Shown piece after piece: positions 2,205-3,686 of a stretch of DNA of 24,000 nucleotides. Within the stretch, counting starts at the first letter, position 1; each line of letters starts with the position of its first letter. Origin of the DNA: Streptococcus cuniculi (GTDB lineage: Bacteria > Bacillota > Bacilli > Lactobacillales > Streptococcaceae); NCBI RefSeq assembly GCF_001921845.1, contig NZ_MSJM01000001.1:233691-257690 (forward strand), written 5' to 3'. Position numbers and translations under genes: made by a program. Under the pieces are notes generated by a model. It was not told the DNA's origin. It saw only the letters and a list, made by a program, of their open reading frames with translations, and did no database searches.

Positions 2205-2344
2205 CGATTCAGCATCAATTTGATAGAGCAAGGCTATAGAATAGAAATTTCAGAATATTCTCATCTCAATCCATGCAGAAACATTTTTTGATTATTTCTT
2301 AGGTAGTGCGGATGCAAGCAACCTCCTACAATCTTCAAAGTATC

Positions 2345-2368
2345 AAAAAAGAGCCCTTATTGGCTCTT
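2345..2368 (-). terminator. Rho-independent terminator
   Basis: The minus strand reads AAGAGCC-AATAAG-GGCTCTT followed by further T residues (a T6 run in total). Confidence 0.7.
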
Positions 2369-2634
2369 AGAATGAAGATAAACCCGATTTTCTATTTAAA
2401 CAAGTTGCAAAGCTCTGCTCACTTAGCATTCGTTTTGCCGATTTTCACGAGCGGAGCGAGCCTCATCAGATACTTTTCGCTGTGGTAAAAGTAGCGTCAC
2501 CATTAGTAGTGACGCTACTCGGAAATGTTGAGACCCTAGGCTCAACATTTAGGTATGGAATGCCGCAGGAAGTCGCTACCGGCCGAGCCACCTAAGAAAA
2601 GTATCACAAAAGAATGTTTTCTGCAATCTGAAAG
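2369..2634 (-). other. Structured ~280-bp insertion (candidate MITE-like element or 3'UTR/sRNA) flanked by 14-bp direct repeats
   Basis: The direct repeat CCTTATTGGCTCTT occurs at 2355..2368 and at 2635..2648. The second copy contains the sepM-like stop codon. Inside are two perfect 10-bp hairpins (2491..2518 and 2523..2550). They are enclosed by a perfect 10-bp long-range pairing, GATACTTTTC/GAAAAGTATC (2469..2478 with 2596..2605). Confidence 0.45.
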
Positions 2635-2636
2635 CC

Positions 2637-3686
2637 TTATTGGCTCTTGGTTTTCTTCAGATAGTCAATGGCTTCCTTGACATGGGTCACGGGGACGACT
2701 TCGATGTCTAGCTTATCCTTTTTGACAGCTTCCATTGCTTCTTCATAATTGGTTTTGGCATCTGGATGTTGTTTCAAAATCTCTTTATCGACGGGATTGT
2801 TGGGAACAAAGAACACACTTGCTCCTGCTTTGGCCGCAGAGAGGACTTTCTTGTCGGCACCACCAATGTCGCCAACGGAACCATCTTCTCCAATCGTTCC
2901 AGTCCCCGCAATCATGCGACCGTCCCGTAAATCAGGATCTGCTAATTGGGTGTAAATGGCTAGCGTGAACATCAAGCCTGCACTTGGACCACCAATGCTT
3001 CCCGTTTGGAAATCAATCTGCTCACTACTTTTGACTTCGGTATGGTCTACAAGGCCGATTCCAATCCCATTTTTCCCATTTTCTAGCTTGATGATTTTTC
3101 CATCTGCGGTCAATTCCTGACCAGCGCTCACATAACCTACTGTGACATCGCTCCCCAGCTTCAAACTGCTGACATATTCAATCAACTCTGGCGAACTCTT
3201 GAAGGTTTTACCATTGACGCTGACGACAGTATCGGCAATATTCAAAATATGCTTAAAGGTGGAATCCTCAGTCACATTGAGGACATAGACCCCGAAAAAT
3301 TCCAAAGATGTTTCTTTCTTCGCCAAGGTCAATCCCTGATATTTGGCGATATTCTGGGAAGTTTCCATATAGAATTGATTGATACGGTAGAATTCTTCAC
3401 TATTTGCGCCACCTGCCAACTCTTCCTTGGAAATAATATCAGAGTGCGAATCAAGGGCCGCAAAGAGGAGCTGAATAGCCGTAGCTGGCTTGACTTGCAC
3501 ATAGACAAAATTATAGGAGCCTGACTGTTCATCCTCTTTTCCACCAACGGTTAAGACCGTACGAATATCGGCTGCACCCCCTGGGCTTTCGATATAGTAG
3601 GGAAGTGGGAATAAAAAGGCAACCCACAACAAGATGGTTGAGAGGACAATCGATAGAATCAGGACTAGTTTTTTATTTTTTTTCAT
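2637..3686 (-). CDS. SepM/YlbL-like membrane-anchored PDZ + Lon-C (S16) serine peptidase
   Basis: 349-aa ORF with an N-terminal TM helix and a central PDZ-like segment. The C-terminal Lon-protease-like domain carries the Ser motif IGGPSAGL and the Lys motif GGADKKV. Confidence 0.8.

Follow-up and report, generated by a model that had tools for sequence, protein, structure and literature searches.

A probable IS1182-family MITE inserted in the terminator hairpin of sepM in Streptococcus cuniculi

We analyzed a 24,000-nt stretch of the Streptococcus cuniculi genome (contig NZ_MSJM01000001.1, positions 233,691–257,690), hereafter called the window, and all coordinates without a prefix refer to it. 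Every gene in the region of interest lies on the minus strand. The sepM-like gene (2637–3686, minus strand) encodes a 349-aa protein with PDZ and Lon_C domains (Pfam), which is 98% identical to its counterpart in S. cuniculi WM131. It is the final gene of an rsmD-coaD-sepM block, and a YutD-like gene is located at 1594–2160. The spacer between the two genes contains an insertion, whose target is the 3′ end of sepM.

A first-pass annotation of this DNA had reported a 14-bp repeat flanking the insert, and CCTTATTGGCTCTT was present at both 2355–2368 and 2635–2648. We found that the duplicated segment is really about 18–20 nt long (2349–2368 versus 2631–2648), with 14 nt still identical. What has been duplicated is the sepM terminator hairpin. 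Because the sepM-like open reading frame spans 2637–3686, its stop codon (2637–2639, minus strand) falls within the proximal copy of the hairpin (2631–2648, minus strand); this copy has no U-tract, because the hairpin abuts the end of the insert directly. The distal copy (2349–2368, minus strand) is followed by a U-tract at 2343–2348. A terminator scan of the region scored the distal hairpin as the sole intrinsic terminator and did not call the proximal copy, in agreement with the earlier claim that the insert separates the stop codon from its terminator. Judged by its sequence, the distal copy is the working terminator of sepM. Since the proximal copy lost the U-tract and the distal copy kept it, the operon transcript would be expected to read through the insert; we predict that the rsmD-coaD-sepM transcript has a 3′UTR of ~280 nt, formed by the folded element, and ends at the distal hairpin. 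A promoter scan of the region called no promoter-like site, and so did not report the weak internal promoter suggested earlier.

The body of the inserted element is ~262 bp long (2369–2630) and lies on the plus strand in the orientation of the Rfam model that matches it (see below); a blastn coverage profile placed its boundaries at ~2369 and 2633. It consists of a left module (2369–2494), a middle hairpin module (2495–2562), and a right module (2563–2630), all on the plus strand. The left terminal inverted repeat (2368–2385, plus strand) reads TTAGAATGAAGATAAAC. Its family consensus, TTCAGAACGTAGACAAAC, had 34 matches in the genome, almost all of them continuing into element copies. The right terminal inverted repeat (2614–2630, minus strand) reads CAGATTGCAGAAAAC on the minus strand, and aligns with ends of the form CAGAyyGAAGACAAAs found in insertion sequences (IS) of the IS1182 family. 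The longest open reading frames within the insert were ≤60 aa, as expected from the earlier remark that it holds no convincing coding sequence. Directly downstream of the terminator, the coverage profile also revealed the remnant of a short related element (2284–2345, minus strand), which has a 33-nt inverted match to 2567–2599 and a right-module-like part that occurs in 8 genome copies. The remnant, which S. cuniculi WM131 has too, is oriented opposite to the main insert. Its presence beside the main insert indicates that the spacer was struck more than once.

The earlier annotation had predicted what the site should look like when empty, and we found that site in S. acidominimus CCUG 27296 (L024), where sepM ends in one stop-containing hairpin followed by a T-run. 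This single hairpin aligns with the distal copy in the window and differs by one base, in the hairpin loop, from the earlier reconstruction. In more distant relatives, including S. suis, sepM likewise ends within a terminator hairpin. A second empty site was identified in Streptococcus sp. ZJ93, which has one hairpin at the position where the window’s genome carries the element copy C1:47571–47843. Separately, we observed other sequences in the same spacer of other streptococci. In Streptococcus sp. LysM4 (L022:3548–3900), a different IS, with an end beginning TGTACTGACCCC, starts directly after the sepM stop codon. The spacer behind sepM in S. azizii (L023:3530–3760) contains two copies of an unrelated ~130-nt repeat. 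Insertions thus recur in the spacer behind sepM.

The element proved to be repeated in the window’s genome. In the 2.09-Mb assembly, 60 segments matched the element sequence, and separate module searches returned 44 matches to the left and 39 to the right module, giving 32 paired copies on 13 contigs. We estimate that the genome holds about 40 copies. The middle that connects the left and right modules is ~69 nt long (as in the window copy), ~96 nt long, or doubled. A different 5′ part with the boxA-like sequence ATCGTCACTTTCGACTTGCCGTAC was seen in the copies at C1:92011–92378, C12:166043–166410, C1:176542, and C1:210425, pointing to a second repeat family that is either nested within the left module or fused with it. 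When 31 copies were compared with the genes around them, none was located between divergent genes and 12 were located between convergent genes; background spacers were 14% divergent and 14% convergent, and the probability of finding 0/31 in divergent spacers was P = 0.008. The copies thus adjoin the 3′ ends of genes, and they do so in either orientation relative to the neighboring genes.

For the 18 copies in which both termini are present, we took 34 nt of flank from either side and matched cognate as well as non-cognate pairs. Cognate pairs shared 14–25 nt in 9 of the 18 copies, whereas the longest match between non-cognate flanks was 9 nt. A chance repeat was rejected on this control, which never exceeded that length. 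Furthermore, nearly all of 20 copies drawn from 19 other Streptococcus genomes were bracketed by locus-specific duplicated hairpins of up to ~31 nt. The duplicated flanks are terminator-like hairpins that differ from locus to locus.

The helices described earlier within the insert were all recovered as perfect pairings (2469–2478 with 2596–2605, 2490–2500 with 2509–2519, and 2523–2532 with 2541–2550), and the motif GTCGCTACC was found at 2572–2580, where it had been placed. Together they outline a conserved structured core (2469–2605) in which a closing helix surrounds two hairpins of 10–11 bp and a fourth stem. Among 15 copies with the same middle module, pairing was Watson-Crick in 648 of 690 pair cells, and compensatory changes occurred in each helix. 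The whole element folds at −103.8 kcal/mol on the minus strand (z −5.3) and at −102.3 kcal/mol on the plus strand (z −4.3), and in the minus-strand fold, which is the sense of sepM, the two hairpin copies are able to pair as an outer stem. A comparison of the strands showed no preference for either one (G-U versus A-C, 14 versus 6; alifold −49.6 versus −48.1). Because neither strand is singled out, the pairing could be maintained at the level of DNA or of RNA.

A search against Rfam, also suggested earlier, matched the insert to RF02616 (SSRC8_2, “Streptococcus sRNA 8”) with 86.2 bits (E = 8e-23; model positions 1–281; window 2346–2653, plus strand), which is above the curated gathering score of 72 bits. 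Matches to RF02616 at E ≤ 0.001 were present in 137 of the 151 Streptococcus genomes sampled, and in 21 of them the match was above the gathering score. The outer helix of the RF02616 model corresponds to base pairing of one flanking hairpin copy with the other. The Rfam entry describes an sRNA gene, whereas the family observed here behaves as a dispersed, transposon-derived repeat whose flanks are specific to each locus. At the sepM locus, the strand in Rfam sense is antisense to sepM.

The ends of the element led to its probable parent. DUF772 matches were found in 95 of 201 streptococcal genomes, and the loci fetched from these matches hold an IS of 1535–1552 bp; two variants are longer, at 1694 and 1730 bp. 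The IS open reading frame scored 450 bits against the NCBIfam model for IS1182 family transposases (NF033551; cut-off 270) and contains DUF772, DDE_Tnp_1, and DDE_Tnp_1_6. The IS and the element have terminal inverted repeats of 16–17 nt in common. An alignment of both ends of the element with eight IS ends showed the invariant pattern T.AGA..G.AGA.AA, and one IS end (L177:440–455), CAGAACGTAGACAAAC, is identical over 16 nt to the left-end consensus of the element. Beyond ~17 nt at each end, we saw no clear similarity between the element and the interior of the IS. Direct hairpin duplications of 16–34 nt flank the IS in 25 of 26 copies from several genomes.

The transposase reading frame at L174:1336–2850 passes the end of the IS (2781 of that locus) without meeting a stop codon and continues into the duplicated hairpin and flank. 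The transposase reading frame of ISSmi2 in S. mitis B6 likewise overruns the end of its IS without a stop codon (PMC2828477), and ISSmi2 has been assigned to the IS1182 family (PMC10383233). Apparently the parent IS is of the published ISSmi2 kind, a likeness drawn from the description of ISSmi2. The genome paper for S. mitis B6 describes ISSmi2 as having no target duplication (PMC2828477). On the sequences of the flanks compared here, our observations would disagree with that statement, unless the element was defined there so as to include the hairpins.

We also considered whether the parent IS resides in the window’s genome, and did not find it there. Two Pfam searches (including DUF772 and DDE_Tnp_1) and a tblastn search with the transposase detected no IS1182 transposase there, and a terminal-repeat search of the genome for the parent IS returned only the ends of the miniature element. 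Because no transposase was found in the window’s genome, the copies there are orphans, and recent mobility in this strain is unsupported.

We concluded that the insert is very probably a MITE of an IS1182-family IS, presumably mobilized in trans and targeting terminator-like hairpins, in this case the hairpin of sepM. The mobile-element reading offered in the first-pass annotation is thus upheld by the many copies, by the ends that match those of the IS, by the occurrence of the same hairpin duplication around both IS and MITEs, and by the empty sites. That reading had named the absence of other copies, of empty sites, and of covariation as grounds against it, but other copies, empty sites, and covariation were all found. 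It had also spoken of an unusually long target duplication. The duplication is indeed long, but it is not unusual; because 25 of 26 IS copies carry direct hairpin duplications, a long duplication is what this IS lineage normally leaves behind. The second suggestion, a captured sRNA or 3′UTR module, is not required to explain the insert, even though the element would form the 3′UTR of sepM and its family is listed by Rfam as an sRNA.

The following series of events would account for the observed arrangement. The MITE would have been mobilized in trans by the DDE transposase of an IS1182-family IS, whose lineage appears to target hairpins resembling intrinsic terminators; here the target would have been the stop-codon hairpin of sepM. 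A staggered cut guided by structure would place one join at each base of the stem, with the two ends of the element linked to opposite strands; the substrate may be an extruded cruciform. Because the joins would be at both stem bases, gap repair would then copy the entire stem-loop, duplicating 14–34 nt according to the size of the hairpin. Indeed, joining at both stem bases of an extruded hairpin may be the reason that the length of the duplication would equal the length of the hairpin (14–34 nt). Transcription of sepM would thereafter read through into the element, as far as the distal hairpin.

In MITE copies, the loops of the two flanking hairpins often run in opposite orientations. This was the case in 10 of 21 informative MITE copies, whereas none of 25 IS copies showed it (Fisher p = 9e-5). 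Inverted loops were found in 3 of 9 informative copies in the window’s genome and in 7 of 12 in other genomes; examples from the window’s genome are C15:29378, C13:122453, and C11:268966. At an orthologous locus in three species (L151, L153, L162), the left loop is GTTT, ATCT, or AGAT, and the right loop is constantly AGAC. Because inversion occurs in MITEs and not in IS, it seems that insertion creates direct copies and that the loops flip later. Such flipping could result from quasi-palindrome correction or gene conversion between nearby inverted segments, either of which could make one long perfect hairpin of a MITE together with its flanks. Another possible cause is selection for an outer stem in the RNA, as represented in the Rfam model of SSRC8. 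It is possible, and we suggest it tentatively rather than as probable, that the IS lineage measures its target by structure and that the flanking loops of MITEs flip after insertion, both perhaps being undescribed properties.

The same hairpin of sepM is occupied in S. cuniculi WM131 (L021:3548–3960), where the element has the opposite orientation and a different middle, and where the loop of the first internal hairpin contains ~130 nt from another repeat. The flanks of the site are 94–95% identical between WM131 and the window’s genome. Nevertheless, the right module of WM131 is 88.7% identical to that of the window copy versus 89.4% to its best paralogue, and the window copy is absent from the 12 best matches to the WM131 left module. 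Given the difference in orientation, either the hairpin was struck twice or an old copy was inverted and converted. Since neither copy resembles the other more than it resembles paralogues, the evidence leans toward a second insertion or toward conversion. Contigs from other sequencing runs (Logan contigs L101–L104) carry the arrangement of the window. WM131 has ~13 copies of the element versus ~40 in the window’s genome; thus copy number differs strongly among close relatives.

These data bear on a reading that is compatible with the MITE explanation, namely that an element of MITE origin was later co-opted by the host as a structured 3′UTR that stabilizes or regulates the mRNA of the sepM operon. 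The very stable closed fold in the sense of sepM, the preservation of pairing among copies, and the retention of the element at the site in L101–L104 and WM131 are what such co-option would lead one to expect. However, the WM131 element is reversed and has a different middle, and close relatives lack an element at this site. Moreover, because the WM131 modules are no nearer to the window copy than paralogues are, there is no sign of sequence-specific constraint at the sepM locus. We therefore consider co-option unlikely here, although not far-fetched.

We think it highly improbable that the element belongs to the BOX-type repeat families of S. pneumoniae and S. suis and was moved by the machinery that moves BOX. 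BOX-type elements are modular, highly base-paired intergenic repeats of streptococci that are co-transcribed with neighboring genes (PMC3049150). The present family resembles them in its modular, base-paired build, and it has exchangeable middle modules as BOX does; boxA-like sequences lie beside or inside some of its copies, and the BOX-type families described from S. suis have end modules as large as 115 and 133 nt (Croucher et al. 2011, PMC3049150). In contrast, the ends of the element match IS1182-family IS directly, and a blastn search with the element against five S. suis genomes gave no match, the defining criterion for BOX membership being the published module HMMs. We also tried identity with the boxE-B-F family of S. 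suis, which was unsupported by the same search of five genomes.

Least probable of all is that the insert is a genuine trans-acting sRNA gene, a homologue of S. pyogenes SSRC8 lying by chance behind sepM: the match to RF02616 above the gathering score, the conserved helices with compensatory changes, and the Northern signal and circular RACE ends obtained for SSRC8 in S. pyogenes (Tesorero et al. 2013, PMC3675131) favor it, but a genome with about 40 copies in either orientation to their neighbors, a strand in Rfam sense that is antisense to sepM and has no promoter-like site in our scan, two strands that fold equally well, and ends and flanks of the transposon type all argue against it, and the paper that described SSRC8 mapped no promoter for it either (PMC3675131).

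The MITE reading has consequences for annotation. RF02616, which is listed as a streptococcal sRNA, appears to be a transposon-derived repeat, and matches to it that lack expression data should not be taken as regulatory RNA genes. It also shows how an IS lineage that seeks terminators can rewire the 3′ ends of genes, by parting the stop codon from the U-tract and by adding a stable, folded 3′UTR; such rewiring occurs behind many genes simultaneously. The element is of an ordinary kind and does not represent a new kind of system. The family was already known as an sRNA in Rfam, as were streptococcal IS1182-family elements and the targeting of hairpins by the IS1182 family. In the literature that we examined, we found no statement that SSRC8_2 is a MITE of an IS1182-family IS, and none that the streptococcal IS and MITE duplicate an entire hairpin.

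Three comparisons place the element among known systems. The first is with the streptococcal IS1182-family IS, with which the MITE has terminal inverted repeats and flanking duplications of hairpin length in common; unlike the IS, it is only ~262 bp long, has no transposase, and contains an unrelated structured interior. A second likeness is to YPAL/RU-2 of Yersinia, which are non-coding miniature insertion sequences of ~170 bp (De Gregorio et al. 2006, via PMC2229807) with target duplications of 3–26 bp that span or abut dyad symmetries (PMC2229807). These belong to a different phylum, the summary in PMC2229807 names no parent IS for them, and we liken them to the MITE by description. Lastly, IS1272 and TnSha1 of staphylococci, which are also of the IS1182 family, target terminators and other hairpins without specificity for primary sequence, and can strike the same hairpin repeatedly and in both orientations (PMC4923244, PMC5678879). 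On insertion they remove or replace this hairpin and create no duplication (PMC4923244, PMC5678879), whereas the streptococcal IS and MITE are each left with a complete copy of the hairpin on either side. Duplication in streptococci and deletion by IS1272 thus form a natural pair for studying how IS1182-family transposases recognize DNA structure.
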